A stretch of DNA of 64,000 nt from a virus. Below are positions 10,901 through 57,062 of this stretch, piece after piece. Within the stretch, counting starts at the first letter, position 1. The number at the start of each line of letters is the position of its first letter. Below the pieces are notes generated by a model. It ran no database searches and was not told where the DNA came from. It saw only the letters and a list, made by a program, of their open reading frames with translations. The DNA is taken from the IMG/VR virus record IMGVR_UViG_3300025597_000012, one strand, 5' to 3'. Both the position numbers and the translations under genes were made by a program.

Positions 10901-13858
10901 CGTTCTTATTTGAACATAAGTAATATCTCCATCATCATTAGTAAATGTAAATTCTTCTACTTTAGACGCATCTTTATCTTTATATTCATTTAATTCTTCC
11001 TGTCTTCTTTTTTCTATATCAGCTTTCTTAGCTTCTATATCAGTAGCTTTATTTTTATTTTCAGCTCTTTGAGCTTGTGCTTTCTTAGTTACTTCTGCTT
11101 TTACTTTAGAAGAAACTTTACCTTTTACTTCTTTACCGTTTTTATCAACGGCTGTAACTTCCCCATTAGGTTTAACTATATAAGTCTTACCTTCATTTTT
11201 TACAAGTACGTCTTTAGTTTCTTTCTTAGTTTCAGCAGGTTTAGCCTCAGTAGCTTTAGTAGCTGCTGCAGCTTTAGGAGCTGGTTCATCTACAACGTCT
11301 TCTACATCAGCACCATTAACATCACCGGGTTTAACTTCAGTATCTAAGAAAGGTGATTTATCAAAGTTATCTTCAGCTCTTTGATATTCAGCCATTACAT
11401 CAGCAAAGAATTTATTATATCCGTTCTTATTTGTAAGTTGCTGATAATGATAAATAGCACCATCTGTAGCACTTATAAGTTTAAATCCATCTTGTGCTTT
11501 GTTTAAAATATCATAAGCATCAATAGGATTAATTATTTTTTCATTACTAAAAGTTTTGTTATTAGCATAATAATTTAATAACTCTGTAGCAGTTTTTGTA
11601 TAGTTTCCTTTATAATCATCAGCTAAAGCATCTTTAAGTTCTTCAACTTTTTTATTTAAAAAGTCTCTTTCTTTTGTTTGCTTTTTATATAAATCGGAAT
11701 CCTTATCTTCAACATCTTTTGTTAATTCATCAATCTCTTTAACTCTTTTTTCAAATCTATTTATAGTATCTTGTACACCTTTATCATTAGTTAAATTAAT
11801 TACTTCATCAACATTAGCACCAGTGGATTGAGCTATCTCTGTAGATATTTTAGAAAGTCTTCTTTTATTATCATTAATTTCTGATAAGTTAAGACCTAAC
11901 TGTGTTTTATATTCATCAAATACAAAATAATTATTAGTTCCTTTTTTATAAGGATTAGGGAAAACTTTTTCTACTTTATCAATATTATCTTTAATATCGT
12001 GAGCTTTTTTGATAATATTATCAACAAAAGCATCTGTAGTTTTTTTGTTTTCTTCTGAGAAATTTATACCAAACATATTTTGGAACTCTTCAGGCTTAAG
12101 TTCTTTAAGCATATTAAGTTGTTCCATTCTTAAATCAAAGCGATTAGCTCTGACTCCACTTTCAACAAAGTTAAATAATTGTTGAAATTTAAGATTTTTA
12201 TGTTCAAAAATATCACCTTTAGCTAAAGCTTCATCCATAGAAGACTTAATAGATTGAGCTACTACAGCTTCATCATAAGTATTTCTAAATAAACCAGAAA
12301 GTCTTTGACTATTAAGTAAAGAAACGGCAGAATTAATTATTTGATTTTTTCCACCATCAATACCTTTTCTACGCTCAAGAGCACCTCTACCAACATGAAT
12401 AACAGCACCGCTAAGAATACCTAAGAATACATTCTCAAGACCTTCTCTTGTAGTTAGTACTTCTTTTAATCCTGTTGCTAAAGATTGGGTAAAATTATCA
12501 ACAGTATCAATATCCTTATTAGAGAATTTACGCTTATAATAATCTTCGGCAGTTCTTTGAATTACAAATTGAGAACCTTCTTCAAATCCTTCAGTAAGAC
12601 TTGTAGTTATAGGTCTAGCTATTTTACCTGCTGATTTAAATAAATCAAATTTTGTACTATTCTTTAATGTATTTTCAAATACATCCATAGATGCTTTAGA
12701 TAATGCAATATCCGCATCACTCATTACTTCAGATTGTACTGCTTTTCTAGCTGCATTTGTAGGACTAAATAGTGAACCAAAAATTTGTGAATTTGTAAAA
12801 GTAAGAAGAGCTACGTTAGCAAGCATACCAGCATTACCACCACCTCTTGCATATTCCTTAATCTGTTCTAAATCATAACCAGATGGGTCACGATGATATG
12901 TATTTCTATAATCTTCTGTTAAATTTTTTTCAATATTACGATATGTTTGATTTGCCTCAAATGTACCTTCAGCAATAGCAGAAGTACCTATAGCCAGACC
13001 ATATCTGAATTTATCAACAATATTTTTTGTTTTATTAGCTGCATTTATAGTAGCAAGAAGTTCATCGGCCTTATCTAAAGATTCAATAACAGCAGTTGAA
13101 ACTCTTTTTTCAGCAGTAAAGTATTTTCCTATTTTACCAAAAGCACTCATTATTTGAGAGCTTACTAATGGAACATCACCAACACCTCCAGTTAAAACTC
13201 CAACTACAGCATCTTCAGCAATAGCACCACCAATAGCACCTGCAGTGAAGCCAAGGTTATTTAATAAAGTACTCCAGTTATTAGCAGAACCATTAGTAAA
13301 AGGAATCCAACTAGCAATAGGATGTAACTGATTAGCAGTAGATTGATATGTAGGATGACTTATTTCTAAATTTTCCATCATATCTGCAATAGAATTTGCT
13401 AATTTTCCATTATATGTTTTATCTATATCTCCTGATGATAAAGCATCTAAAGTTTGGGGAACAGCAACAATAGCTTGTGCAAAAGAACCTGTAGTATTAC
13501 CTAAAAATTTTAAAATATTATTTCCCCATGTAGTCCAAGCACTTTGTCTATCACCATATTGAGCTTCTTGATTTGTATTATATGGGTCAAATCCATAAAT
13601 AGGTGACTGATATCTTAGAGTTTGTTCAAGAGGTGTTCTAACAGGCTGATTTATTTCTAAAGAAGATGACCAAGGTGCAGATTCAGTTCTTACTTTATCA
13701 AAGATACTTGATAAGATTTCTTTAGGAGAAGGAGTAACCTGAGCACCCGGAACATTAGGCATAGGCTGAGTATGTAACTCAGGACTAACTAAGTTATTCA
13801 TTCCTGTATTCAGGAAATCCAAGTTTCTGTTATATGTACCATTTGGAACGTCAGGCAT
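1979..13858 (-). CDS. Giant 3959-aa virion-associated polyvalent protein (two zincin HExxH motifs plus an ART-like domain)
   Basis: Single uninterrupted ORF. HELAH lies at nt 6629-6643 and HEYLH at nt 5429-5443. An ART-like segment at nt ~8040-8480 reads GEPMVMFHGT...LFLSPEYDFSEDYA...LAVYEADQVK. The N-terminus is Gly/Ala-rich and hydrophobic, and there is a hydrophobic segment near the C-terminus. K/E/Q/P low-complexity linkers are present. The gene sits in the tail/virion module. Confidence 0.6.
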   Translation of the reverse strand: MPDVPNGTYNRNLDFLNTGMNNLVSPELHTQPMPNVPGAQVTPSPKEILSSIFDKVRTESAPWSSSLEINQPVRTPLEQTLRYQSPIYGFDPYNTNQEAQYGDRQSAWTTWGNNILKFLGNTTGSFAQAIVAVPQTLDALSSGDIDKTYNGKLANSIADMMENLEISHPTYQSTANQLHPIASWIPFTNGSANNWSTLLNNLGFTAGAIGGAIAEDAVVGVLTGGVGDVPLVSSQIMSAFGKIGKYFTAEKRVSTAVIESLDKADELLATINAANKTKNIVDKFRYGLAIGTSAIAEGTFEANQTYRNIEKNLTEDYRNTYHRDPSGYDLEQIKEYARGGGNAGMLANVALLTFTNSQIFGSLFSPTNAARKAVQSEVMSDADIALSKASMDVFENTLKNSTKFDLFKSAGKIARPITTSLTEGFEEGSQFVIQRTAEDYYKRKFSNKDIDTVDNFTQSLATGLKEVLTTREGLENVFLGILSGAVIHVGRGALERRKGIDGGKNQIINSAVSLLNSQRLSGLFRNTYDEAVVAQSIKSSMDEALAKGDIFEHKNLKFQQLFNFVESGVRANRFDLRMEQLNMLKELKPEEFQNMFGINFSEENKKTTDAFVDNIIKKAHDIKDNIDKVEKVFPNPYKKGTNNYFVFDEYKTQLGLNLSEINDNKRRLSKISTEIAQSTGANVDEVINLTNDKGVQDTINRFEKRVKEIDELTKDVEDKDSDLYKKQTKERDFLNKKVEELKDALADDYKGNYTKTATELLNYYANNKTFSNEKIINPIDAYDILNKAQDGFKLISATDGAIYHYQQLTNKNGYNKFFADVMAEYQRAEDNFDKSPFLDTEVKPGDVNGADVEDVVDEPAPKAAAATKATEAKPAETKKETKDVLVKNEGKTYIVKPNGEVTAVDKNGKEVKGKVSSKVKAEVTKKAQAQRAENKNKATDIEAKKADIEKRRQEELNEYKDKDASKVEEFTFTNDDGDITYVQIRTYPDGKRMAYQGIEKNKYGNVNDNSPFEISKEQTTEDYLKVAYSQTSFGKYSKTGERTGEESSLNAYSKKINAKYDAELATLEENTSKEVQTSAGPVTFIDNTPTHETFDSEDVAEIQEGVKEADKKRKGVKTNSIQMVANPSVLFNKINSVNYQDGQKNNDNLRKVLFSKTPQQIYDGLTATVAESTKGLPHGAYQGFKNIPGVYYTGSHTQIELKFEGETIGFLSDADRLYFKRGEKYTPLIEIAPEEYERITGNEPSTYSDFIQQMTDYKALSEHFYSQFKSGKTEFTNQELKALFDIVTSYGGINYSKSESSSTLLKNLTYKGQKGSAILSFPVVYNKENKQYERSTKPTILNKAELSQDEITDIVTYVANNLKNIQSFDRRYLYVMKMPDSTFRHLVARPSAADEKILNEVYNELKNLPNTLTKAQVDKINSELTEKLYIADSRNRDERRTDLKLTVDTQGNIYLNVFNKTVDPENPIHKRVKVNEIKQAKDFDGMVRAIDEKIRKVSYETKSIDKLNLSLAKQDFKSGILNDAEVTQDQLNNSLSIAAQPDVFKQFSLRVFPLQKGQKAAVKPSAPTEAKQEVKPQPKQEPAAAKAVKQARIEEKKIQTPKEEFISIVRENLTDIKEPYKSGIAGSNDEDVFNAVVSQYIDNPEAGKNIFGKKVSDALVRLIPEAAEAEKRAFETVQVAADKKSMAKVMETLFSLKSTQAKAVSEIYDRVATTWALRNGKTKEDFYKSITFRKTTPESLQGSEDTIWQNPSIEQEKAQIKEAAKKNGTFRKAPNGRPSLLDEDTWLLTKTKAFKNWFGNSKVLDVNGEPMVMFHGTPENWSIFDKTQGRGMGLFLSPEYDFSEDYAMVTRGNNVLSLFVKANKPFDYENKQDLAFLKEHNKTIYSRLTGGEDENGNFYLSEEHNWQVLEDKAFQKLIKDNGYDGYYVKEQGIKNLAVYEADQVKDASGRNATFSTENPDIYYQYSNSAMIANVVKGFELQKAKSFGNLAFQTKNGKATPELAKKINKWLADNGYGNTLKFVYEATHGTVNPFINEGNLLFQNQSVESKLRIPVANILENISKIKNPTNFITDISKGLKVFRDGTEFVTEEEYKNQLISNFGRIVDYIDKETLSQFKQIFNLTDAEIEALNGITQQYDSIKVGLSGLWNRFNNGHGGLDKEATLTNIKIGSFVTRLRSILREFNVTDKDIENNSYEDKIINSPFVRDDNVHYILAEASLYKKLLKVDQTETFRKVQDISKLISNITSDEQKVIEDRLSNSIYNQLKNHLNIEGGTNTRTREDKYKGAIQLYNLVKNNLDSVTEDDFDSITEYLEFKNNIEAKLSEIKEQIKKLKNSEHRFTRLLKPTYSGRPEFSDNDLKRNDTSKIANWTNVQFNQGPKGAIRLLGDSQAIIYSLTNPDVSTPLHELAHYWEGQLTDTERADVLEWAGTEDWSRETSEKFARGFEKYLADGEAPTSTLQKLFDNFKKWLTDIYKGIVGSDIDVTLNDSMKKIYAAMLGEKYETVIKEEVKTEQEEEKKVEEAQAEEPAPVPTKAITRKELSIRTTGDGLVEIKHNGTLINTIDEFDGAWYDEAGDAIGLNKDEAIQSIIDKLNAGNTQEKEITPAQETETQQTEPVEQQTEEQPQPEEERIPEVFTKEDVGSKVMYNGKELTVTEVNEGLDKETPFGTVKGTTFVTITDGTKYGEQIVASDKLTKVAPEIQEETEEPFDEGVLKEIVIPKSYDTDYSENHKTEYGKQNEPFTVSTEDEDNLTVDYVGLKVILEHLKQKYNIPYQVVDVDEDWKGKFENSVAVINLSRVSRDTPFHEYLHPFMAVLKVDNHALYTSLMEEYKALVLENDDIAGEAMSETLKSPLYKGKNKEEIQDEALVNYLGKLGARNFDRTGRFLYDKYHKSGASLARKFFDWFVSVLSGFYGALKANVKGAKAGEQGVAKIKYLPAMNLAEFADLTSSNGMPFDFTERKDLITAVKAFQADATEKTDDQKLIERIKRRLAVLDDTARRRTPSPELLSELIAVRSLLKNYDEFESINQYIYQGIDGLRYASDEFKRISGKLSDKENKLTQKDVKQLHRDLDLVRNLLAMYEDVHGLFGRVAQDLAPEAYKAMQITLAEARNIADYKIKARSIDLTAEWLFPYIEEVNERIKDKYPSYVLTKEQFKNKLYNADEDLSFLQFHLGSVGSNNDPVSAITRTALFDVMEDNHLYEAKLGEEIKIDYAKFLKAKGLANETKSTVEYYKKNFLRKATILQKTEEKDDEGKFKWAYTQKWALHQPYFYDLYTKDKAAFLETLGEMPDAPSENSTAAERALYQNYVDKIFAWEEQNGSLSKPADKYKNAEFDRLYNKDEFFTKMYDTYKEGNDKYGEEERLQFGIVPQVFDKPSQIQDVKTAEGAGNKAKVVGNKVLNFFLPKAEESTTAQNDINLDGSMYKRIKTPYVQSIDDSNVSLVLPETIFKFAGAANLVEMMREVEPNVRTLRMVLEGNAQFKMEARKIIPVTSDRKTIFDRFLKLPSKKTTAERLNKQLLSWLDDVVYGQEELQDTARIFGRAVDLNKLGGNFAFLTALNNMAFNVTAGIGNVSIGNIMTLGESLGAKYYTPADWRKAQGQYFSNFNEFMKDAFNLKKSKITQLGIKYDAIQGEFRDKYGKKFVGNATQRYANADTIFIINHAAEHQIQLVGMLSLMNATKVKTTSGETISLFDAHKINEKGFLRLRDDIIWTAEDERLFTQRLHGVNKILNGNYSKFDKVQLQRTFYGKLMLIYRKFMYNAFRSRYGRQRFDYEIGDEMEGYYRKFFSKVASDIKEMKFNAAANFFNRKGWSADEKYAYNKTMFELSLLVGMGILTIALANASGDDKDKSWLQNTLTLQMLRLRKDIGMYSIFGATDIMQVLQNPSAVILTATRYTDFFTQLVTNPTEVYKRKTGAFDKGDSILKAKLFKAIPIVRQAVNMMQPEEQLQYYRLLNKY

Positions 13859-16488
13859 TATTTATAATTTCTTAATTCTTCTATAAATTGTTCGTGTGTA
13901 AGTCCTTGTTGCGATGCAAGTTTAACTACTTGTTTTGCTTTATTATAAGCATCAGAAGGACTTAAACCATTGGTTGCTGGTATTGTAATTCTATCTACTC
14001 TATTTGTTTTATTACCATTTTCATCTAAATAATAAACTACAGCTTGTGCATAAGAGTTATTATCATTTAAATCTGATGAATTTCTATCTACTATATTTAC
14101 AAAGATAGACATATCTTTATTTCCATAAATAGGTAAATCAGAACTTCTACCGTTTATTTTTACACTATAGTTAAGTGAGTTTTCATAAGGGTCTCTTACA
14201 ATTCCCATTTTAGCAGCTTGACTATCACTAATAAAAGTTTTATATTTAGTTTTTACTGTTTTATCACCATTACCTACTTCAATATCAGATATAACAAAGT
14301 AACGTCCAGTACCATCAGATGCTTTTCCTATCATTGTAGGAGTAATCTTTTTTTCTACTGTTAAATCACTATTGCTAAGTTTAGGAGAATCTCTATAAGG
14401 TTCTGATTTTCCATTTATTAATTCTGTACTTATTAAATTAGATAATTGTCCATCACTAACAAAAGGGTCTTTATTTGAAATAGTTCTTAAACCATAAACA
14501 TCTCTTGTTTTTGTAGTTTTAAGACCTTCATTAATATTTTGTATGACTGTAGTTAAATAATCTCCAAATTCAGAATTTGCATAACCGGGAGTTACAAAAC
14601 CAAGAGCAGCAAGTCCATTTTGAATTATTGAAGCTGCTTCATTTGTGCTTTTTGAACTAAGTTCTGGATGTTTATTAATAAACTCAGTTATTTTTTCTCT
14701 AGCTGCTTCTGGAATGTTAAAATCATCATAAACTTTATTACGAACAGCTTCTACTTTTTTATTGTTAGCTTTGATAACTTCATTGTTCATTAATATCTTC
14801 TCAACATCAGCATCAAAACCATCTATTAAATCGGGAGTTACTGAACCTTTTCCTAAAGCTAAAGCTTCATAGTTCTTATATTGATTAGCAATAAATTGTA
14901 ATTGAGAACTATTTAAATTTGCTAAATGACCATATTGCTGAACTACAGCGTCATGTTTATAAACAGGTTTTCCATCAGGGCCTGTTGTCGTTTCAAACAT
15001 AGCTAAGTCATCTGCTTGTAATCCGGGTTGACCATTAAAATCTTCTATAAACTTCTGATTCTTAAGAAGTCTGGCTGTTCCTTTACCTATAGTTGTTACT
15101 TCTGTAACACCAACTTCAGGGTGTTCACCAACTAGCTTGTTTATAATAGATGCGGATATTTGGTCATTTTCTAGCTTTAATGCTGTATTTTCATCTGTAA
15201 TTTTAGCTAATGTTGGAATAGATGCTTCTTCTGTATTAGGGTCATCTGTTACTAAGTGGTTATCTCCTGTTGGTAAATCAAGTAATTCAATTTCTCCTGT
15301 TATAGGATTAACATGTCTATACTTACCTGCAGCAGCTAACTTAACTTGAAGCTCTCCCTCTTTAATATCAAGCTCTCTATTTTTTAATTCTACTGTTTTA
15401 GCAAAATGTCTATCAGCTTGTTCCATCTTATCAGTGAACATCTTAGCTTGGTCAAATTGTATAGTTCTGTCTGTTCTATTAACTGAGAATCTATTACCTA
15501 ATCCTCTAAAATAATCATCTGCATATAGATTGTAATAGACTTCATCAGGGTTAGATTGAAGTGCTTTACCAAAATTCTGTGAGAATTGTGACTTAGCCGA
15601 GGCAATAGAAGATACTACTTTAGCTTGTTCATCTGCTAATTTATTGTAATTTTTTCTAGCTTGGGGGTCATTAACTGCTTGAGCAGCAAGGTCTTCGTAT
15701 TCTCTTTGAAGTCTTACAGCATCATCAACTTTAGTTTGATATTGTGCTTCTCCTTTTTGCATAAGAGCCTTAGGGTCAGCTCCTCTGTATAAAAACCAAG
15801 CATCTCTTTTCATTTGTTCTCTTTCCTGAGGAAGCATATTATCAGCAGCAATAGCCATTATTCTGTCTGGACTAATTCTTTCACCTGTTTCCTTAGTTAT
15901 GTAATATCCATTTTGCATGATATTAGTAGTAAGGTCAGATTTAATTTTATCAAATAACTTATAGTGAGCATCACGATAAGCTACATAAGGAGTAGCCTCA
16001 GATGGGCCATTATAACTACTTCCAATAGTTTTATCATTCATGTAAGCATTAACACTTTGCATGTCATATGCTTCATTTACTTGGCTATAAAGTTTTGAAA
16101 GTTTAGGGTCTGTTTTAAATTTTTCATAAGAACTCATTAAATTTCTAACTTTCTTTGTTGAAGCAAGTGCAGAAAGAACTTTATTATCAGAATAAATATC
16201 AGAACCTAAACCTTCTACTTGTGCTGTTACACTTTGGTCAGATAAGTCAATTCCACCATATGTATTTAAAGAACTAACAAGATTATTAATCTTACCGTTA
16301 AGATAGTCTCTATCTTCTGTCTTTAATACATCTAAGCTACCAAGTTGGTCTATATCAGATTGTATCTTTTGGCCTGCCTTATCAAACTGTTCTTGCTTGA
16401 TACTCAACACTTTAGAGAAAAGGTTGAGGTCAAGTGGTAGCTCGTAAGGGCTAGACTTAAAAGGTGTACTTAAATAACTTATCGCCAT
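13858..16488 (-). CDS. 876-aa virion structural protein (function unassigned)
   Basis: Long ORF. Its stop overlaps the giant gene's start. A promoter-like site lies upstream. No diagnostic motif recognised. Confidence 0.5.
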   Translation of the reverse strand: MAISYLSTPFKSSPYELPLDLNLFSKVLSIKQEQFDKAGQKIQSDIDQLGSLDVLKTEDRDYLNGKINNLVSSLNTYGGIDLSDQSVTAQVEGLGSDIYSDNKVLSALASTKKVRNLMSSYEKFKTDPKLSKLYSQVNEAYDMQSVNAYMNDKTIGSSYNGPSEATPYVAYRDAHYKLFDKIKSDLTTNIMQNGYYITKETGERISPDRIMAIAADNMLPQEREQMKRDAWFLYRGADPKALMQKGEAQYQTKVDDAVRLQREYEDLAAQAVNDPQARKNYNKLADEQAKVVSSIASAKSQFSQNFGKALQSNPDEVYYNLYADDYFRGLGNRFSVNRTDRTIQFDQAKMFTDKMEQADRHFAKTVELKNRELDIKEGELQVKLAAAGKYRHVNPITGEIELLDLPTGDNHLVTDDPNTEEASIPTLAKITDENTALKLENDQISASIINKLVGEHPEVGVTEVTTIGKGTARLLKNQKFIEDFNGQPGLQADDLAMFETTTGPDGKPVYKHDAVVQQYGHLANLNSSQLQFIANQYKNYEALALGKGSVTPDLIDGFDADVEKILMNNEVIKANNKKVEAVRNKVYDDFNIPEAAREKITEFINKHPELSSKSTNEAASIIQNGLAALGFVTPGYANSEFGDYLTTVIQNINEGLKTTKTRDVYGLRTISNKDPFVSDGQLSNLISTELINGKSEPYRDSPKLSNSDLTVEKKITPTMIGKASDGTGRYFVISDIEVGNGDKTVKTKYKTFISDSQAAKMGIVRDPYENSLNYSVKINGRSSDLPIYGNKDMSIFVNIVDRNSSDLNDNNSYAQAVVYYLDENGNKTNRVDRITIPATNGLSPSDAYNKAKQVVKLASQQGLTHEQFIEELRNYK

Positions 16489-48322: not shown

Positions 48323-48358
48323 AAAGGCCGACTTACAACTAGTTGTAAATCAGCCTTT
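48323..48358 (-). terminator. Long near-perfect hairpin closing tRNA array 1
   Basis: AAAGGCCGACTTACAACT/AGTTGTAAATCAGCCTTT palindrome. The T-tract is clear on the plus strand and weaker on the minus strand. Confidence 0.45.
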
Positions 48359-48408
48359 TAATTTAACCCTCCACCTTAGTCCTGTACCAGCGGGATTGGG
48401 GGAATACG

Positions 48409-48480
48409 CACGGGCTGTGGGCATCGAACCCATCTCCATGCAAGGTTTTGGAGACCTGCTGCTTCCTAAAGCTAGCCCGG
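48409..48480 (-). tRNA. tRNA-Trp(CCA), non-canonical
   Basis: Anticodon loop CTCCAAA and T-arm ATGGG-TTCGATG-CCCAC. Irregular features are a tiny D-loop (GCTT-TAGG-AAGC), a C1.U72 mismatch and an 8-nt variable region. The TGG codon in the upstream leader supports the call. Confidence 0.5.
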
Positions 48481-48485
48481 ATAAG

Positions 48486-48558
48486 TACACTCTAAAAGAT
48501 TCGAACTTTTATTTCTTGGTTCGTAGCCAAGTGTCCTCATCCATTGGACGAAGAGTGC
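48486..48558 (-). tRNA. tRNA-Arg(ACG)
   Basis: Cloverleaf with anticodon loop CTACGAA and T-arm AAAAG-TTCGAAT-CTTTT. Confidence 0.8.
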
Positions 48559-48563
48559 AAAAG

Positions 48564-48636
48564 TGTGAATGACCAGACTCGAACTGGTACTTAGTAGCTC
48601 CACAAACTACCGCTCTACCATTAAGCTACATCCACC
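48564..48636 (-). tRNA. tRNA-His(GUG) with encoded G-1
   Basis: Anticodon loop TTGTGGA, an extra 5' G before acceptor GTGGATG, and T-arm ACCAG-TTCGAGT-CTGGT. Confidence 0.8.
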
Positions 48637-48643
48637 ATATGAG

Positions 48644-48714
48644 ATGCCTCTAAAGGACTCGAACCTGTAACTCTTGACCCAAAATCAAGCGTGTTGCCAT
48701 TACACTAAGAGGCA
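48644..48714 (-). tRNA. tRNA-Gln(UUG)
   Basis: Acceptor TGCCTCT/AGAGGCA (U1:A72) and anticodon loop TTTTGGG. Confidence 0.8.
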
Positions 48715-48719
48715 AAAAG

Positions 48720-48791
48720 CGTGGAAGGTGGATTCCGAGACCACAACACCTTGCTCTTCAGGCAAGTGCTCTACCTTTGAGCTACATCCAC
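48720..48791 (-). tRNA. tRNA-Phe(GAA), unusual T-loop
   Basis: Anticodon loop CTGAAGA. The T-loop is 9 nt (TCTCGGAAT) and there is one acceptor mismatch. Confidence 0.6.
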
Positions 48792-48798
48792 ATAATTG

Positions 48799-48872
48799 AG
48801 CCTGAGAAGGGAATCGAACCCTCAACCGCTAGTTTACAAAACTAGTGCTCTACCGATTGAGCCACTGCAGGC
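48799..48872 (-). tRNA. tRNA-Thr(UGU), bulged acceptor stem
   Basis: Anticodon loop TTTGTAA. The acceptor GCCTG(C)AG/CTCAGGC needs a 1-nt bulge. Confidence 0.6.
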
Positions 48873-48876
48873 ATAG

Positions 48877-48948
48877 TCTAGTTGACAGGGTTCGAACCTG
48901 CCTAGTCTTGCTCCCAAAGCAAGTGCCTAACCAATCGGCCACAACTAG
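48877..48948 (-). tRNA. tRNA-Pro(UGG)
   Basis: Perfect acceptor CTAGTTG/CAACTAG and anticodon loop TTTGGGA. Confidence 0.85.
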
Positions 48949-48952
48949 AAAT

Positions 48953-48977
48953 AAAAAACCCCGCTTTATAGGCGGGG
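48953..48977 (-). terminator. Intrinsic terminator (attenuator) immediately 5' of tRNA array 1
   Basis: Minus strand reads CCCCGC-CTATAAA-GCGGGG followed by TTTTTT. It ends 4 nt before tRNA-Pro. Confidence 0.7.
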
Positions 48978-49003
48978 CTTTAAGTATAATAATTGAGTTT
49001 CAA

Positions 49004-49078
49004 TTAGTTACACGTAGTGCATCCGCCACCAGATATTGTGGGCGTAAACCAAAAGCGTGTATGTTGAAACTGTTTCAT
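49004..49078 (-). CDS. Leader peptide L1 (24 aa) MKQFQHTRFWFTPTISGGGCTTCN
   Basis: Hand-translated, and below the ORF-track size cutoff. Codons 3-14 (Q F Q H T R F W F T P T) use only the 7 amino acids whose tRNAs follow, and they use all 7. It lies between the promoter and the terminator. Confidence 0.6.
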   Translation of the reverse strand: MKQFQHTRFWFTPTISGGGCTTCN

Positions 49079-49139
49079 ATTTAAAAAAGACCAATTCTAA
49101 GCGCGCTGTTCTATAGGAAGCGGAACTGGTATATTGATG

Positions 49140-49171
49140 CAAACTTACGAAGAATTTTTCAATCCTCCAAA
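49140..49171 (-). promoter_or_regulatory. Bacteroidota-type promoter of leader L1 / tRNA array 1
   Basis: Minus strand reads TTTG-N20-TAAGTTTG. Confidence 0.65.
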
Positions 49172-49786: not shown

Positions 49787-49790
49787 TTTG

Positions 49791-49875
49791 TGAGAGTGGC
49801 TGGAGTCGAACCAGCACCCTTGCGGGACTACAGTTTTACAGACTGCTCCACCTAACCGATAGGTAGCTCACTCTC
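49791..49875 (-). tRNA. tRNA-Tyr(GUA), class II
   Basis: Anticodon loop CTGTAAA, variable arm CCC-GCAA-GGG and perfect acceptor GAGAGTG/CACTCTC. Confidence 0.8.
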
Positions 49876-49881
49876 AAATAG

Positions 49882-49967
49882 CGGAAACGAAAGGACTCGA
49901 ACCTTCAACCCAAATTAACGAGTAACGGTTTAGCAAACCGCTGCAGTACCATTATGCTTACGCTTCC
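49882..49967 (-). tRNA. tRNA-Ser(GCU), class II
   Basis: Anticodon loop TTGCTAA, long variable arm and T-arm GAAGG-TTCGAGT-CCTTT. Confidence 0.7.
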
Positions 49968-49972
49968 AATAG

Positions 49973-50056
49973 CGGTAGAGACAGGAATCGAACCTGTACG
50001 GCTATTACACCTTCATGGTTTTCAAGACCAATAAGCCCTCTCATTTGCGCTCTACC
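49973..50056 (-). tRNA. tRNA-Ser(UGA), class II
   Basis: Acceptor GGTAGAG/CTCTACC, anticodon loop CTTGAAA and long variable arm. The D-stem is weak. Confidence 0.6.
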
Positions 50057-50062
50057 AATATG

Positions 50063-50148
50063 TACTCCTGACTGGACTCGAACCAGCACGTCCATTTCTG
50101 GACAAGGGATTTTAAGTCCCTCGTGTCTACCAATTCCACCACAGGAGC
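50063..50148 (-). tRNA. tRNA-Leu(UAA), class II
   Basis: D-arm GTGGAATTGGTAGACAC, anticodon loop CTTAAAA and variable arm GTCC-AGAAAT-GGAC. Confidence 0.8.
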
Positions 50149-50153
50149 ATATG

Positions 50154-50237
50154 TAGCCTCGGAGAGACTCGAACTCTCACGTCCTTACGGACACTAGCTC
50201 CTAAGGCTAGCGCGTCTACCAATTCCGCCACAAGGCC
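50154..50237 (-). tRNA. tRNA-Leu(UAG), class II
   Basis: D-arm GCGGAATTGGTAGACGC, anticodon loop CTTAGGA and variable arm GTCC-GTAA-GGAC. Confidence 0.8.
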
Positions 50238-50240
50238 AAT

Positions 50241-50268
50241 AAAAAACCCCGACTATTGCTCGCCGGGG
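50241..50268 (-). terminator. Intrinsic terminator (attenuator) immediately 5' of tRNA array 2
   Basis: Minus strand reads CCCCGGC-GAGCAATA-GTCGGGG followed by TTTTTT. It ends 3 nt before tRNA-Leu. Confidence 0.7.
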
Positions 50269-50300
50269 TTTGAGGTTAAAGACCGTAGTCTAAAACAAGT

Positions 50301-50369
50301 TTACATAGTATTCCCAGCTCGATTTTTACTCGATAAACTGAGGGAATAATATGTGTTGTTTGTCTTCAT
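50301..50369 (-). CDS. Leader peptide L2 (22 aa) MKTNNTYYSLSLSSKNRAGNTM
   Basis: Hand-translated. Codons 7-14 are TAT TAT TCC CTC AGT TTA TCG AGT (Y Y S L S L S S). They use only Tyr/Ser/Leu and cover both Ser boxes and both Leu boxes, matching the downstream Leu, Leu, Ser, Ser, Tyr tRNAs. Confidence 0.6.
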   Translation of the reverse strand: MKTNNTYYSLSLSSKNRAGNTM

Positions 50370-50386: not shown

Positions 50387-50418
50387 CAAATATACGAAAA
50401 ATATTTGAAACTACCAAA
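50387..50418 (-). promoter_or_regulatory. Bacteroidota-type promoter of leader L2 / tRNA array 2
   Basis: Minus strand reads TTTG-N20-TATATTTG. Confidence 0.65.
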
Positions 50419-53243: not shown

Positions 53244-53255
53244 TGGTTTTATTTG

Positions 53256-53331
53256 TGGAATCTATGGGCATCGAACCCATCTGGTATTCTGCTTGCAAGG
53301 CAGACGACCACTCCAAGCAGTCCCAGACCCC
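53256..53331 (-). tRNA. tRNA-Ala(UGC)
   Basis: Acceptor GGGGTCT/AGATTCC includes the G3.U70 pair. Anticodon loop CTTGCAA and T-arm ATGGG-TTCGATG-CCCAT. Confidence 0.7.
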
Positions 53332-53456
53332 AAATGCGGGGGACTACGGCCCCCTAAAGATGTCTTATTAGGTTTCATCTCTGTCCCGGATTACGCTAGC
53401 GAGCTACCGGGGAAACCACGCTACATACTTTCGTAGAGGTTATGCGGGTTACACTG
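53332..53456 (-). other. Structured 125-nt spacer inside the tRNA array (not foldable as a tRNA)
   Basis: Nested stems GGTTTC/GAAACC and CCCGG/CCGGG, hairpin GGGGG-CCGTAGT-CCCCC and hairpin TAC-GAAA-GTA. No T-loop. Confidence 0.35.
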
Positions 53457-53529
53457 TGCTCACGCTAAGACTCGAACTTAGACTCTCTCGCGTATCAGGC
53501 GAGAGCTTTAACCATTAAGCTACATGAGC
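53457..53529 (-). tRNA. tRNA-Ile(GAU)
   Basis: Anticodon loop CTGATAC and T-arm CTAAG-TTCGAGT-CTTAG. Confidence 0.8.
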
Positions 53530-53581
53530 TGGAGAGGGACAGGTTATTTATACCTTCAAAGGACTCCCTCAGACCTCTTCG

Positions 53582-53654
53582 TACTCTCAAAGGGATTCGA
53601 ACCCTAAATTGCCTGTGTATAAGACAGGAGTTTTCACCGTTAAACTATGAGAGC
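53582..53654 (-). tRNA. tRNA-Ile(UAU)
   Basis: Anticodon loop CTTATAC and T-arm TAGGG-TTCGAAT-CCCTT. AUA codons are used three times in leader L3. Confidence 0.7.
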
Positions 53655-53801
53655 AAGTAAAGAGAGTGGGATTAGATTTCCGGGGATTGACCCAACCTGT
53701 GTCCTAATCTTATTTATCCTTGTACGGAGGCACACTCTCTTTGAATGGTCGGGCGGATTGCTTCTTTCAGCCTCAGACATTAATTACAATGTTGCCCGAT
53801 G
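53655..53801 (-). other. Structured 147-nt spacer inside the tRNA array (tRNA-like stems but no canonical cloverleaf)
   Basis: Acceptor-like pairs TCGGGC/GCCCGA and GAGAGTG/CACTCTC. Internal hairpins ACATT-GTAATTA-AATGT and GATTAG...CTAATC. No TTCGA T-loop. Confidence 0.3.
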
Positions 53802-53874
53802 CGGTCTATCACGGATTCGAACCGAGACTACCGCATAGACAGTGCGGCGTGTTCAACCATTACACTAATAGACC
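53802..53874 (-). tRNA. tRNA-Asp(GUC)
   Basis: Perfect acceptor GGTCTAT/ATAGACC and anticodon loop CTGTCTA. Confidence 0.8.
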
Positions 53875-54504
53875 ATAAACTTTATCCATGTTTGTTTTTC
53901 CGTTGCCATGAATAATCAACGGCTGAGTACCAGTTTTTTTATTAATCAGGATTCCATGTCTGTACTCAAAGTCATCTTCTGATTCAAAAGCTACAGATTG
54001 AAATAAATCACAGTTGGTATCCAACTTCATGTTATATTTATCTCTGTGCTTCAGATAAATTTCTGCTAAGTTAACTTGGTCATTATCACTATGTTTTATT
54101 GGATAATCCTCAAACATCTTGATAAATAAATCTACATTAACAAAGCATGCACCACCATTCAGATATTTCCAATCACTTTTTACTTTAGGATATTTTTCTG
54201 CCCAATCTGAATAAGGCCAGCATCCTTTTTCTGCGTTAAATATAATAGAATCAATATCATCTATTCTATCTATTGCTTGTTGCATTGTACCCAAAACTAT
54301 GATGTCATAAGTGTCTAGGATAAACAAGTGAGTACAATCTGTTTGCTTTGCATAGTTATAAGCGTTAACCATTTTACTACCATAAGCTTTATAGGTATCA
54401 GTCAGAATATCATAATTCCAATCAAACCTATCAAGTGAATCTTTAAACTGTTTAAACCCTTCGTGGTTTAAGTTGGTTGCTGTTCCTATTACGTTTACTT
54501 TCAT
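53860..54504 (-). CDS. GT-A glycosyltransferase resembling the collagen (LH3/PLOD-type) glycosyltransferase domain
   Basis: LFILDTYDIIV (DxD-like), FNAEKGCWPY, KYLNGGACFVNV and PLIIHGNGKT. From memory, these parallel VDSYDVI / FSAE.FCWP / FLNSGGFIG / VHGNGPTK of LH3. The 3' end overlaps tRNA-Asp by 15 nt. Confidence 0.5.
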   Translation of the reverse strand: MKVNVIGTATNLNHEGFKQFKDSLDRFDWNYDILTDTYKAYGSKMVNAYNYAKQTDCTHLFILDTYDIIVLGTMQQAIDRIDDIDSIIFNAEKGCWPYSDWAEKYPKVKSDWKYLNGGACFVNVDLFIKMFEDYPIKHSDNDQVNLAEIYLKHRDKYNMKLDTNCDLFQSVAFESEDDFEYRHGILINKKTGTQPLIIHGNGKTNMDKVYGLLV

Positions 54505-55289
54505 TTGAATGGATTATAATAAATAGATATTGTATTATTCTTATAACCCTGAACGGTTTCGTGATAGGTTTTCCATTGTTCAGAAGCATGGTTTTCTTTC
54601 CATTTCTGGTATGGTGTTCCTCCTGTATCTATGTGTTCTATCTCTATATGAGGTAAGAATACACTTTTAAACCCTGATAGTCTTGCTCTTATAGACATAA
54701 GGACATCATCAAATCCGTATAAACTAGGTTGGTATAAATAACCTATTTTATCAAGTAAAGCTGCTGAGTGCATAACACAAGTACCCATCACATGATTTAC
54801 TTGTTCTACTACTACCCATTTTTCACCGGGCTGGTGTTGAAGCATTAGTAATTCTGACTTATAAAAATCAGTTCTATTTGGTGATTCCCAACAATCTTTT
54901 CTTTTCAAGCCCACCTGTCCAATAGTATTGTCACGGCGAAAAACTTCTTCCATCTGTTCTATCCAACCTGATTGATGTATTACTACATCATCATCAATTT
55001 TAACACAATTCTCTCCGGGTTTTCTTTCTTTCCATGCTAAATTAATAGCTTCAGCAGTTCCTAGATTTTTATCATTCCAGATAACTTTATCAATTACAGA
55101 AAAAATTCCATTTGATTCAGAAAAATCTTCTATTATTTCTTTTGTTCTAGTAGTATAGGAATTTACAGAAAGTATTAATCTGTGTGAATCCCAGTCAACT
55201 GTTTTTTCTAAAGAATCTAATGTTTTATAAAGATATGTATCTTTATCATTATCTTCAGTACAATAAACAGCCATTGCTATTAAAGCCAT
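54501..55289 (-). CDS. Family-2-like glycosyltransferase (start trimmed to MALIAMAVYC)
   Basis: GT2-like N-terminal beta-strand, NLGTAEAINLAW and a KIDDDVVI DxD motif. The track start at 55331 lies inside tRNA-Glu. Confidence 0.55.
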   Translation of the reverse strand: MALIAMAVYCTEDNDKDTYLYKTLDSLEKTVDWDSHRLILSVNSYTTRTKEIIEDFSESNGIFSVIDKVIWNDKNLGTAEAINLAWKERKPGENCVKIDDDVVIHQSGWIEQMEEVFRRDNTIGQVGLKRKDCWESPNRTDFYKSELLMLQHQPGEKWVVVEQVNHVMGTCVMHSAALLDKIGYLYQPSLYGFDDVLMSIRARLSGFKSVFLPHIEIEHIDTGGTPYQKWKENHASEQWKTYHETVQGYKNNTISIYYNPFK

Positions 55290-55304
55290 TGGTTTTATTT
55301 TTAG

Positions 55305-55379
55305 TATTCTGGAAGGGACTCGAACCCTCACTGACCACAGTGAAAGTGTGGTGACTTATTCCAATTTGTCAACCAGAAC
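55305..55379 (-). tRNA. tRNA-Glu(UUC)
   Basis: Anticodon loop CTTTCAC and T-arm GAGGG-TTCGAGT-CCCTT. Confidence 0.8.
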
Positions 55380-55380
55380 A

Positions 55381-55452
55381 TTTGCAGTTTAGTCGGCCTC
55401 TACTATACCTAGGCCGCAGAGAGTATAGACTCGTATTCCATCTACTGCAAAA
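55381..55452 (-). other. 72-nt three-way-junction element between tRNA-Gly and tRNA-Glu
   Basis: Closing stem TTTGCAG(tt)TAG/CTACTGCAAA and hairpins CGGCC-13nt-GGCCG and GAGT-ATAG-ACTC. Its size is tRNA-like, but there is no T-loop and no anticodon arm. Confidence 0.3.
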
Positions 55453-55460
55453 AGGAATTG

Positions 55461-55531
55461 AGCGAGTAGTGGGAGTCAAACCCACGCCTTAACCTTGGAA
55501 GGGTCATATGCTATCGTAACACTTCACTCGC
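55461..55531 (-). tRNA. tRNA-Gly(UCC)
   Basis: Anticodon loop CTTCCAA and T-arm GTGGG-TTTGACT-CCCAC. The 5' 21 nt overlap the HNH ORF's 3' end. Confidence 0.7.
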
Positions 55532-55942
55532 TAATGCTTCTTTATAATGTAAATCTCTATGACAATTAGCACATAAAACTTTACATTTATTTATTTCTTC
55601 TTGTAATAGTTTTTTAGAACATTTTGTTACAAGTTGTGATACTTCTGAATCTTTTTCATTTGGATTTTTATGATGAAAATCTAAAACCCAATATCTACTA
55701 TCTCCACATGATTCACAAGATAAAGTACTTTTGTATTCAGAAAACCATTTTCTAAAGTCTTGTTTATACTTTACTGCTTTTTGAATATACTTTTCTTTAT
55801 TTTTTTCGTAATGCTTTTTTCTATATTCTTTTTGACAAGCTTTACAATTACTTTGATAAAGTAAATTTTTTCTATCTTTTCTTGTAGCAAACTCCGTTAA
55901 AGGAAGTTCTTTTTTACAAATTGTACATTTTTTAATTTTCAT
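55511..55942 (-). CDS. HNH endonuclease (start trimmed to MKIKKCT)
   Basis: CxxC pairs plus DFHHKNP...CANCHRDLH. The track start at 55978 lies inside the promoter. Confidence 0.65.
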   Translation of the reverse strand: MKIKKCTICKKELPLTEFATRKDRKNLLYQSNCKACQKEYRKKHYEKNKEKYIQKAVKYKQDFRKWFSEYKSTLSCESCGDSRYWVLDFHHKNPNEKDSEVSQLVTKCSKKLLQEEINKCKVLCANCHRDLHYKEALASEVLR

Positions 55943-55947
55943 ATATG

Positions 55948-55979
55948 TAAATATACGAAAAATAATTGATACTTCCAAA
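55948..55979 (-). promoter_or_regulatory. Bacteroidota-type promoter (imperfect -7 box TATATTTA)
   Basis: Minus strand reads TTTG-N20-TATATTTA, 5 nt before ATG 55942. Confidence 0.45.
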
Positions 55980-56001
55980 TTTTATTTTATTTGGAAGGAT
56001 G

Positions 56002-56073
56002 TTGCGTAGGCTGGATTCGAACCAGCGACCTAATGGTTATGAGCCATCCGAGCTACCTCTGCTCTACCACGCA
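56002..56073 (-). tRNA. tRNA-Met(CAU) (elongator or Ile2-type; not initiator-like)
   Basis: Anticodon loop CTCATAA and T-arm GCTGG-TTCGAAT-CCAGC. There is no GGG/CCC anticodon stem. Confidence 0.75.
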
Positions 56074-56183
56074 ATTTATCCCCGGACTAGTGCGCCTTCC
56101 TCCGGGGGTGTTATTGCTTATCTTCTTCGTCAATAACTAAACCCTTTTGGGTCGGCCAACGGATACTATCCGCAGGGGGGGGG
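56074..56183 (-). other. Hairpin-dense 110-nt spacer upstream of tRNA-Met with a C9 (plus-strand G9) homopolymer
   Basis: Stems CGGA/TCCG, ACCC/GGGT, TTATTG/CAATAA and CCCCGGA/TCCGGGG. The G9 run is at about 56175-56183. Confidence 0.3.
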
Positions 56184-56396
56184 CTATCTTAATATCTTTA
56201 AACCGCTGGTAGCAGTCCAAAGAACATAATTGTTTTTCTTTACTTCACCCATTACTATTTTCTTTTCATAATTAGTAACTCGTGAAGTAGGAAGGGTAAC
56301 CAACCAGTGAATGAATTTTTCTCGTTCACCTTTGTATTTTTTAATACTGGCTATCCTACGGTATTCCTTACCGTCTTTTATGACTGTATCATTCAT
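56184..56396 (-). CDS. Hypothetical protein (70 aa)
   Basis: ORF starting 2 nt after the tRNA-Asn 3' end. Confidence 0.35.
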   Translation of the reverse strand: MNDTVIKDGKEYRRIASIKKYKGEREKFIHWLVTLPTSRVTNYEKKIVMGEVKKNNYVLWTATSGLKILR

Positions 56397-56397
56397 G

Positions 56398-56472
56398 CGG
56401 GACAGGATGGACTCGAACCAACGACCTTAGAGTTAACAGCTCTCTGCTCTCGACCAACTGAGCTACAGTCCC
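56398..56472 (-). tRNA. tRNA-Asn(GUU)
   Basis: Anticodon loop CTGTTAA. One mismatch each in the acceptor and T stems. Confidence 0.65.
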
Positions 56473-56513
56473 CTTTTGTATTTTTAACTCCACGCAGAAT
56501 ACTAACTGACCTG

Positions 56514-56587
56514 AAGCCCTGAAAGGAGTCGAACCTTCATCTAATAGTTTAGAAAACTATGACATTCATCCATTATGCTACAGGGCC
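56514..56587 (-). tRNA. tRNA-Arg(UCU)
   Basis: Anticodon loop TTTCTAA and T-arm GAAGG-TTCGACT-CCTTT. Confidence 0.8.
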
Positions 56588-56590
56588 ATG

Positions 56591-56665
56591 TACATCTGGA
56601 ATGAGTCGAACATTCGGTCTCCGTCTTGTAAGGGCGGTGCTTTCAACCAACTAAGCTACAGATGC
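56591..56665 (-). tRNA. tRNA-Val(UAC)
   Basis: Anticodon loop CTTACAA and T-arm GAATG-TTCGACT-CATTC. One C.A mismatch in the anticodon stem. Confidence 0.7.
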
Positions 56666-56720
56666 AAATATAATACTTTATTTAAAGCTTACCAAATAAA
56701 GTATGTTAAAGTTTTGTTAG

Positions 56721-56791
56721 AGGACAAGATAGGAATCGAACCTACGCTGGAGGTGTTGCAGACCTCTGCCTTACCGCTTGGCTACTTGTCC
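56721..56791 (-). tRNA. tRNA-Cys(GCA)
   Basis: Perfect acceptor GGACAAG/CTTGTCC and anticodon loop CTGCAAC. Confidence 0.8.
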
Positions 56792-56794
56792 ATG

Positions 56795-56868
56795 TGCTAC
56801 CGAAGGGACTCGAACCCATAACCTCCTGATTAAAAGTCAGAAGCTCTACACTATTGAGCTACGATAGC
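56795..56868 (-). tRNA. tRNA-Lys(UUU)
   Basis: Anticodon loop CTTTTAA and D-arm GCTC-AATAGTGTA-GAGC. Confidence 0.75.
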
Positions 56869-56872
56869 AAAT

Positions 56873-56897
56873 AAAAAACCCTCCTTTAAGGGGAGGG
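56873..56897 (-). terminator. Intrinsic terminator (attenuator) immediately 5' of tRNA-Lys
   Basis: Minus strand reads CCCTCC-CCTTAAA-GGAGGG followed by TTTTTT. It ends 4 nt before tRNA-Lys. Confidence 0.7.
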
Positions 56898-56920
56898 CTT
56901 CAGTAATATTCGTGGTTAAA

Positions 56921-57013
56921 TTAAACCAGTTCTATATCAGACATAGCTCTCCTGATGATGGTATCTCTACCCACCTCTTTACAAATCATATTTATGGCTA
57001 TGTTCTTTCTCAT
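56921..57013 (-). CDS. Leader peptide L3 (30 aa) MRKNIAINMICKEVGRDTIIRRAMSDIELV
   Basis: Hand-translated. The first 17 residues use exactly the 11 amino acids (K C V R N M G E D I A) of the 12 tRNAs between here and the next leader. All Arg codons are AGA/AGG, and Ile is encoded by ATA three times plus ATT/ATC. Confidence 0.55.
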   Translation of the reverse strand: MRKNIAINMICKEVGRDTIIRRAMSDIELV

Positions 57014-57030: not shown

Positions 57031-57062
57031 CAAACTTACGACAAATATTTGGATTTTCCAAA
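57031..57062 (-). promoter_or_regulatory. Bacteroidota-type promoter of leader L3
   Basis: Minus strand reads TTTG-N20-TAAGTTTG. Confidence 0.65.

Follow-up and report, generated by a model that had tools for sequence, protein, structure and literature searches.

What decides when a phage transcribes the tRNA genes that it carries? The question is raised by one locus in a stretch of 64,000 nucleotides (nt) of viral DNA (IMG/VR virus record IMGVR_UViG_3300025597_000012), hereafter the window, whose large terminase (TerL), P22-type portal and crAss-type capsid protein assign it to a phage. At positions 48,953 to 49,171, on the minus strand, a promoter-like site, a short open reading frame (ORF) and a strong intrinsic terminator follow one another immediately before an array of seven tRNA genes, an arrangement that we call unit 3. 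We propose that the short ORF is a leader peptide and that attenuation at the terminator couples the array to the decoding of its own codons. This is the best explanation that we have for the locus, and we put its probability at about 0.85; it suggests that the phage transcribes these tRNA genes only when the corresponding tRNAs run short. An initial annotation, made from the sequence letters, had read the locus in this way. What it says of the sequence is confirmed throughout, and its reading gains support from the recurrence of the design in other phages, the co-variation of leaders with arrays, the codon boxes that are used and the presence of an antiterminator complement.

A leader that lists the tRNAs behind it

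The promoter that the annotation had recognized at 49171-49140, with its TTTG-N20 spacing, is present in the sequence. The pattern TTTG-N17-21-TAnnTTTG, a two-box arrangement that we take to be the Bacteroidota promoter type, occurs at 13 sites in the window versus 3.2 +/- 2 in shuffled sequences, 11 of the 13 being on the minus strand, and an extended motif (AAATTTGG...TCGTAWRTTTG) is common to the promoter sites of unit 3 and of two further units in the window, units 1 and 2. After 61 untranslated nt, the ATG at 49078 opens an ORF of 24 codons that ends at 49004 and translates as annotated; it is also the top ORF in an automated scan (see below). Its codons 3-14 read CAG TTT CAA CAT ACA CGC TTT TGG TTT ACG CCC ACA, and this run holds all seven amino acids of the array and no others, Arg being written CGC.

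The stop codon lies some 22-25 nt upstream of the terminator hairpin. A hairpin with a U-run had been predicted there and does exist, but it is longer than had been thought: it comprises 10 GC-rich pairs at 48981-48955, with a stability of about -15.6 kcal/mol, and its U-run extends to 48953. The gap of 4 nt between the U-run and the array is real, tRNA-Pro starting at 48948. In fact, the unit passes from promoter to strong terminator within about 190 nt and leaves no space for a second promoter before tRNA-Pro. A promoter followed at once by a terminator would be futile unless termination were regulated, and we therefore counted the layout in favour of an attenuator.

Six of the seven tRNA identities (Pro, Thr, Phe, Gln, His and Arg(acg)) are called by ARAGORN at its default threshold, while the seventh, the Trp(cca)-like gene at 48408-48480, appears at the relaxed threshold only and is not detected by Rfam. 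This gene folds as a cloverleaf with weak D and T stems, occupies the same array position as the Trp(cca) genes that relatives carry at default threshold, and has the anticodon loop TCTCCAAAAC in common with them.

How improbable is it that leader and array should match? Of all residues in the long ORFs of the window, 25% belong to the seven amino acids, and the probability of a run of 12 in a 23-codon peptide is at most 7e-7 per ORF. Among 374 ATG ORFs of 15-45 codons in all six frames, the unit 3 leader is the sole maximum, with a run of 12 against 5 for the runner-up, which bears out the annotation's view that chance was a poor explanation for the run. When related phages were included (1.27 Mb, with 8068 small ORFs), a run of 12 was found only in this leader and in its homologue in the related locus L020. 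Low-complexity windows of 12 codons are not rare as such among the window's spurious small ORFs, so that the significance resides in the identity of the amino-acid set, which is that of the downstream tRNAs.

Leader composition follows array content across phages

To extend the comparison, related loci (L numbers) were gathered at 31-76% TerL identity, two of them from cultured phages, Leptolyngbya phage Lbo-JY46 and Cellulophaga phage phi4:1. In the automated scan a unit was a tRNA preceded by a strong terminator, its set was all tRNAs up to the next such terminator, and from the 230 nt upstream the ATG ORF with the highest score was taken, with no manual choice of ORF; some tRNAs of the compared units were called only at relaxed ARAGORN thresholds. 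A definition of arrays as strictly contiguous tRNAs was tried and rejected, the leader sets of the unit 1 type spanning tRNAs that are interrupted by ORFs.

The scan found 30 further units with the unit 3 layout in 13 related phages, the first tRNA standing 4-8 nt past the U-run, and a set-covering leader at essentially every terminator-preceded unit. Each unit retains an ATG, a frame that is open through the run and a stop before the hairpin. Counted over all 33 units, an amino acid that has a tRNA in the array also occurs in the leader in 213 of 217 unit/amino-acid pairs (odds ratio 51), and permuting the leader-array pairing gives z = 9.0. Common ancestry of the units inflates both figures. 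The cross-match matrix is dominated by its diagonal.

Despite this ancestry, the differences in array content between relatives can be read as natural experiments. Among the unit 3 homologues, whose leaders include FQHTRFWFTQPT, TRQHTQFWFPT, FQHTQRWFTP, HTQRFWQPTPQ, TQHTRFWFTPQTFT and RFTTHFWQFTHPQP, the amino-acid set is constant and the order of residues scrambled. Where the array changes, the leader changes with it. The array of L023 consists of Pro-Gln-His alone and its leader run is HPQPQH; the first unit of phi4:1 (U1; Pro-Glu-Gln-His-Leu-Leu-Arg) has QRLHLQELEQP, and L099-A (Pro-Gln-His-Arg-Leu-Leu-Ser-Ser-Tyr) has LRPLQHSYSLL. L002-B, with Ala-Gly-Asp-Asn-Trp-Thr-Arg(tct)-Phe-Cys, is preceded by RNNWFNNAAAFTTTDCG, and comparison with L099-B finds Ile and Met in the leader only where the array carries them. 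In L116 the array has gained Asn and lost Arg, and the leader is NTWHNTPFTFQPQN. The third leader of phi4:1 has Asn and Cys codons, and the two tRNAs that its GenBank record calls 'pseudo' are Asn(gtt) and Cys(gca)-like.

The match extends to the codons themselves. The annotation had paired the single Arg codon of unit 3, CGC, with the array's Arg(acg), and comparison of codon boxes agrees: in 11 of 11 cases the Arg codons of a run fall in the box of the unit's own tRNA-Arg. Six of these 11 matches are CGN, versus a CGN share of 21% among the Arg codons of the window phage. Where a unit has both isoacceptors of Leu or of Ser, its run draws on both boxes; in L002-A, with Leu(tag) alone, the Leu codons of the run are CTN only. 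Rare codons (TCC, TCG, CTC, CGC) occur in the leader runs.

Could all this be a coincidence, an ordinary terminator or processing signal behind a chance ORF that has nothing to do with the tRNAs? Spurious low-complexity small ORFs do occur in the window, and strong hairpins are frequent in phage intergenic regions. Against this stand a run that has no equal among 374 small ORFs, 33 units of one design whose leader composition tracks the arrays, an Arg codon box that matches every time, a negative outcome of the same scan in unrelated phages, and a packing of promoter, terminator and tRNA (4 nt) that leaves the array without any other route of expression. We find coincidence hardly credible.

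The leader design is not universal among tRNA-rich phages. The same scan found no matching leaders in three unrelated ones, an uncultured huge phage, Bacillus phage Nate and Streptomyces phage CeilingFan, and no matching leader ORF in csAssE-Sib (L118, OR575929.1). At 5516-5640 of csAssE-Sib, a promoter-like site and a hairpin with a U-run stand right before a Met-Gln-Arg-Cys array with no leader ORF, from which we conclude that the terminator-before-tRNA arrangement exists without a peptide sensor. Another arrangement was seen in L002 (5533-5601) and L099 (about 5910-5975), where a tRNA-Glu gene with its own promoter is preceded by a Glu-rich ORF (...EQEIEGEEL... and ...KEEDEEL...) that continues into the tRNA gene, no terminator intervening. 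Here a single tRNA may be controlled in another way, linked to translation; between tRNA-Gly and tRNA-Glu of the window, no Glu-rich ORF was found.

Alternative RNA structures and the position of the ribosome

The unit 3 leader (130 nt) folds at -36.6 kcal/mol, z = -3.8 versus shuffles, and is more structured than expected, a prediction that the annotation had called for. The full leader folds as a long hairpin, in which the run pairs with sequence 3' of it, followed by the terminator. Both alternative pairings that the annotation had proposed, CGCC with GGCG and GGCGG with CCGCC, were recovered, by the minimum-free-energy fold and by duplex search. In the first, region 1 within the run pairs with GGCG/GTGGCG at 49029-49024, in the minimum-free-energy and centroid folds alike; in the second, the candidate antiterminator (region 2, TGGCGGATGCA) can pair with its complement AGCCCCGCC, which is part of the terminator's 5' arm.

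Such a complement is not a peculiarity of unit 3. Nearly every unit has, immediately 3' of the run (nt 46-77 of the ORF), a segment that complements the 5' arm of the terminator; across 32 units the median z is -2.5, with z < -2 in 21 of them and a combined p of 2e-22 against shuffles. The pairing is GCCAGGGT:ACCCTGGC in L023, AGGGCTAAC:GTTAGCCCT in L020 and CTGGGCT:AGCCCAG in Lbo-JY46. Between the homologues L002-B (GTTGGAAC:GTTCCAAC) and L099-B (TGGAGCC:GGCTCCA) it has undergone compensatory change.

The equilibrium probability of the terminator being uninformative (see below), we turned to a model of the nascent RNA, in which the transcript is cut just before the 3' arm of the terminator and a ribosome masks A-15 to A+12. 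The modelled sequestration of the 5' arm averages 0.74 with the A site in the run and 0.35 over the following six codons (p = 3e-8), and in 26 of 31 units the drop comes no more than 2 codons from the final codon of the run. With the A site at codons 2-14 of unit 3 the model gives 0.78-0.84, as against 0.13-0.25 at codons 15-23. The run would thus span the positions at which a lagging ribosome permits the antiterminator to form. This geometry of run boundary and antiterminator would explain the tails of the leaders, which are G-rich and do not match the arrays (ISGGG..., RAGNTM, GTGLG...).

The same tails bear on another reading, according to which the leaders are trans-acting small peptides whose composition was selected for peptide function. 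A leader peptide with a function in trans is not without example, peTrpL being described as one. In the phage leaders only the amino-acid set is conserved, not the peptide sequence, with no conserved motif, and the C-terminal halves are G-rich on account of the RNA complement to the terminator. A peptide function of this kind seems very improbable to us.

From these elements we envision the following sequence of events. Transcription would start at the promoter at 49171-49140, and a ribosome would translate the 24-codon leader while RNA polymerase heads to the hairpin at 48981-48955. If all tRNAs of the run (Gln, Phe, His, Thr, Arg-CGN, Trp and Pro) are charged and available, the ribosome would quickly pass the run and cover the G-rich segment at 49028-49018, the terminator would form, and the transcript would end 4 nt before tRNA-Pro. 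If any of these tRNAs is scarce, the ribosome would lag in the run, the G-rich segment would pair with the 5' arm of the terminator, and the polymerase, no longer stopped, would read through into the seven tRNA genes; RNase P would remove the leader afterwards. The outcome would be a demand-driven negative feedback on tRNA supply, with the leader acting as an OR gate over the co-transcribed tRNA species. The composition of the leader as a list would follow from the whole array being one transcript, of which every species must be sampled. What the sequences themselves establish is the anatomy of the units, the statistical tie between leader and array, its co-variation from phage to phage and the place of the complementary segment. 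From these we infer that the leader is translated, that transcription terminates at the hairpin and that the response runs in this direction; the physiological trigger, we likewise infer, is a depletion or cleavage of host tRNAs or a mismatch in codon usage.

Weighing the attenuation model

Several observations weigh against this mechanism. The run of unit 3 has one codon each for His, Arg, Trp and Pro, versus the tandem repeats of classical leaders. Its antiterminator is short (GGCGG:CCGCC plus GC:GC; -10.9 kcal/mol; p 0.03-0.09 versus shuffles), and for unit 1 the complement does not reach significance. At equilibrium the terminator prevails in most units, unit 3 included, at any position of the ribosome, so that the proposed switch would depend on co-transcriptional kinetics; such dominance is expected of a kinetic switch, and thermodynamics alone is no proof. 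With no ribosome in the model the 5' arm is sequestered in several units (0.65 in unit 3, 0.83 in unit 1), whereas classical superattenuation makes the opposite prediction for this state. The mechanism also presumes that transcription and translation are tightly coupled in the hosts, which are presumably Bacteroidota.

Other difficulties come from the comparisons. To the inflation of the pooled statistics by common descent must be added two units that fit poorly. The leader of L007 (6230-6658; MNTFLRPSLSLYSQHLYAGQGNSV) keeps a run of L/R/P/S/Y/Q/H, and only Pro-like, Val and Gly tRNAs are detected behind it; it may be a relic after partial loss of the array. In L117, which has a large array, coverage by the leader is only 9/13. 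In the window itself, a promoter-like site inside unit 1 (56665-56696, minus strand), between tRNA-Cys and tRNA-Val, would let the downstream tRNAs bypass the attenuator.

Part of this evidence could be turned into an inverted or different coupling, in which translation of the leader is needed for read-through, by blocking Rho or melting the hairpin; variants would be a feed-forward by abundant tRNAs or a leader that serves mainly as a timing delay. The predicted sequestration of the terminator arm in several ribosome-free units would fit such schemes, as would the failure of equilibrium folding to separate the states. A terminating ribosome, though, cannot reach the hairpin, because the stop codon is about 25 nt upstream. 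Moreover, a ribosome just past the run would sit exactly on the complement, in 26 of 31 units the run ends at this boundary, and the geometry of complement and run is that of classical attenuators. We consider an inverted coupling unlikely.

Comparison with known systems

Unit 3 has several of the features that characterize an attenuator: an upstream ORF enriched in particular codons, an intrinsic terminator before the genes, and codons that match the tRNAs encoded behind it. Classical attenuators rely on leaders such as trpL, hisL, pheL and leuL, or on the multivalent thrL (Thr and Ile) and ilvL (Ile, Val and Leu). The phage units resemble them in the short codon-biased ORF and the terminator before the genes; they would do so too in a terminator and a candidate antiterminator that exclude each other, and in the use of ribosome position as the signal. 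leuL also uses rare codons, as the phage runs do. The phage units differ in that tRNA genes rather than biosynthetic enzymes would be regulated, in that the feedback would act on decoding capacity, and in their phage setting; in sequence they show no homology to the classical leaders. In addition, the phage leaders hold 3 to 12 amino acids, as a rule with 1-3 codons for each, where classical leaders repeat the codons of one or two in tandem. Closer in its target is the E. coli pheM leader of pheST, a Phe-codon attenuator that controls phenylalanyl-tRNA synthetase: here too a component of the translation apparatus is under control, but the target is a synthetase, the specificity is for one amino acid, and the system is bacterial.

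T-boxes likewise sense the state of specific tRNAs and set a terminator against an antiterminator upstream of translation-related genes. They differ in binding the uncharged tRNA directly, through one specifier codon and with no translation, while the phage units keep a translatable ORF of many codons. One may nonetheless ask whether the run codons act as specifier triplets that bind tRNA anticodons in T-box fashion, free of translation; the codons do correspond to the anticodons of the array, and the leader region is significantly structured. Yet a search of the 351-nt region gave no match to the T-box model, even with E values up to 10, no other riboswitch family was detected, and every unit has kept an ATG, an open frame and a stop before the hairpin. 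Only one frame is read, the order of residues is free, no tRNA-acceptor-binding bulge is conserved, and no precedent is known for the binding of 7-12 different tRNAs along one contiguous single strand. We hold such translation-free sensing to be quite unlikely, and leader-peptide attenuation remains our preferred reading.

One Rfam family came near to a match. Trp_leader (RF00513) aligns at 48951-49037 on the minus strand with 33.9 bits, versus a threshold of 41, and most of the score comes from the terminator hairpin. We rejected this identity: TGG occurs only once in the frame of the leader, the UGGUGG of the alignment lies in a different frame from the ATG ORF, and the downstream genes are tRNAs. 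The out-of-frame UGGUGGCG behind the match sits in the candidate antiterminator. No other Rfam family reached threshold in the leader region of unit 3. The Bacteroid-trp motif (RF01692) is presented as a cis-regulatory RNA of Bacteroidetes (PMC2864571). No copy of this motif was detected in the window. It sits upstream of chromosomal trp genes and is presumably a Trp-codon leader, which suggests that leader-type attenuation occurs in the phylum of the likely hosts. A full-text literature search, whose coverage was not exhaustive, returned no account of leader-peptide control of phage or bacterial tRNA genes.

Three units, twenty amino acids

The layout of promoter, short ATG ORF, hairpin and tRNA occurs three times in the window (Table 1), and a strong terminator-like hairpin stands right before a first tRNA at only three window sites: 56901-56875, 50271-50244 and 48981-48955. 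The leader of unit 2 covers all of its array amino acids, Leu, Ser and Tyr (3/3), and that of unit 1 holds in codons 2-17 each of the 11 amino acids of its tRNAs (11/11). The sets of the unit 1 type are large, and their run statistics modest (3e-3 to 1e-1); their coverage is always 11/11. No strong minus-strand terminator was found within the tRNA stretch of unit 1 (53255-56868). Jointly, the three leaders cover all 20 amino acids, Arg being divided between AGA in unit 1 and CGC in unit 3.

Taken together, the three leaders may form a system of on-demand tRNA replacement: they would sample the decoding of 20 amino acids, with isoacceptor resolution for Arg, Leu and Ser, and the matching block would be switched on only when the host tRNAs of that block fail. 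Possible causes of such failure are a phage-induced decay, host anticodon nucleases or a mismatch in codon usage. This wider view is tentative, and we give it a little less than an even chance.

Unit 2 consists of exactly the class II tRNAs with a long variable arm (Leu, Ser and Tyr), a grouping retained in most relatives; two of them score best as tRNA-Sec in Rfam because of this arm. HNH endonuclease ORFs (phrog_2255) lie within the tRNA arrays of the window (55511-55978, minus strand), of L020 (about 6741-7125) and of L102 (7604-8038). Upstream of tRNA-Met the window has a GC-rich spacer with a C9 run (56074-56183, minus strand), whose counterpart at 7370-7530 of L102 is a tRNA-like sequence with an insertion of ~70 nt.

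Table 1. Positions of the features of the three tRNA units (window coordinates) and of four sites in phage phi4:1
Feature	Position	Strand	Sequence, content or basis
Unit 3 promoter-like site	49140..49171	-	TTTG-N20-TAAGTTTG; Bacteroidota-type -33/-7 pattern; pattern scan
Unit 3 leader ORF	49004..49078	-	MKQFQHTRFWFTPTISGGGCTTCN + stop; 24 codons
Unit 3 regulatory run	49037..49072	-	codons 3-14, Q F Q H T R F W F T P T
Unit 3 region 1	49038..49044	-	CGCCCAC within run; minimum-free-energy and centroid folds
Unit 3 region 2, candidate antiterminator	49018..49028	-	duplex search, ribosome scan
Unit 3 intrinsic terminator (putative attenuator)	48953..48981	-	AAAGCCCCGC-CTATAAA-GCGGGGTTTT + U-run
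Unit 3 tRNA array, whole	48408..48948	-	ARAGORN, Rfam
Pro(tgg)	48876-48948	-	ARAGORN default
Thr(tgt)	48798-48872	-	ARAGORN default
Phe(gaa)	48719-48791	-	ARAGORN default
Gln(ttg)	48643-48714	-	ARAGORN default
His(gtg)	48563-48635	-	ARAGORN default
Arg(acg)	48485-48558	-	ARAGORN default
Trp(cca)-like gene	48408-48480	-	ARAGORN at relaxed threshold only
Terminator-like hairpin closing unit 3	48323..48358	-	
Unit 2 promoter-like site	50387..50418	-	pattern scan
Unit 2 leader ORF	50301..50369	-	MKTNNTYYSLSLSSKNRAGNTM; run YYSLSLSS
Unit 2 candidate antiterminator strand	50312-50319	-	AGCTGGGA; duplex search, ribosome scan
Unit 2 terminator	50244..50271	-	
Unit 2 tRNAs	49790..50237	-	Leu(tag), Leu(taa), Ser(tga)-like, Ser(gct), Tyr(gta)
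Unit 1 promoter-like site	57031..57062	-	pattern scan
Unit 1 leader ORF	56921..57013	-	MRKNIAINMICKEVGRDTIIRRAMSDIELV
Unit 1 terminator	56875..56901	-	
Unit 1 tRNAs, with ORFs between	53255..56868	-	Lys, Cys, Val, Arg(tct), Asn, Met, Gly, Glu, Asp, Ile(tat), Ile(gat), Ala
phi4:1 gp075	15352-15471		NC_021788.1
phi4:1 gp076	13242-13343		NC_021788.1
phi4:1 'pseudo' tRNA	12975-13063		NC_021788.1
phi4:1 'pseudo' tRNA	12533-12607		NC_021788.1

Implications

The design bears on why phages carry tRNA genes and on how these genes are controlled. It implies that the phage gauges decoding capacity directly and expresses tRNAs according to need, which would tie phage tRNAs to the loss of host tRNAs in infection or defence. 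Attenuation would reach a class of genes not previously included, by way of a new type of leader, with up to 12 amino acids and isoacceptor-specific codons. If the wider view of on-demand tRNA replacement is right, this would be the first known attenuator that controls tRNA genes, and the first combinatorial leader that senses the abundance of tRNAs rather than the supply of amino acids. It is directly testable, because cultured phages carry the design: Cellulophaga phages phi4:1 and phi17:2, and Leptolyngbya phage Lbo-JY46. For annotation, the leaders predict the tRNAs of their arrays, as with the 'pseudo' genes of phi4:1 (Asn and Cys), and they explain small hypothetical proteins such as gp075. 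We envision that parts of these leaders could become compact sensors of tRNA availability in synthetic biology.

The phage and its relatives

The window sequence is present in three metagenomes, and the copies in other samples are 100% identical across the region of the units, which leaves no variation for a population analysis. A neighbouring ORF of 647 amino acids had no relatives in IMG/VR, the relatives of a ferritin-like ORF of 178 amino acids were without tRNA arrays, and a DNA pattern for FQHTRFWF in IMG/VR retrieved L102 only. Several TerL homologues (P0025, P0038, P0041, P0043, P0044) are about 1030 amino acids long and have intein or LAGLIDADG domains (PF14528, PF14890, PF05204). Near the start of the window (80-400, plus strand), repetitive low-complexity frames (MYLLFQMYLKHQMY...) suggest tandem repeats; past about 58 kb the GC content rises to 0.44 and the GC skew changes sign.

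The two cultured relatives add some details of annotation. In Lbo-JY46 (L100, PP438436.1), relaxed ARAGORN calls Arg(acg), Trp(cca) and Ser(tga)-like genes at 2337-2483 and 3346-3435, none of which is in the GenBank record; these are the species implied by its leaders. Lbo-JY46 has Bacteroidota-type promoters and falls in a clade with the crAss-type capsid, which is unusual given its assigned cyanobacterial host. In phi4:1 (L101, NC_021788.1), gp075 is the leader ORF, annotated with a TTG start inside the promoter, and gp076 overlaps a Ser(tga)-like tRNA.

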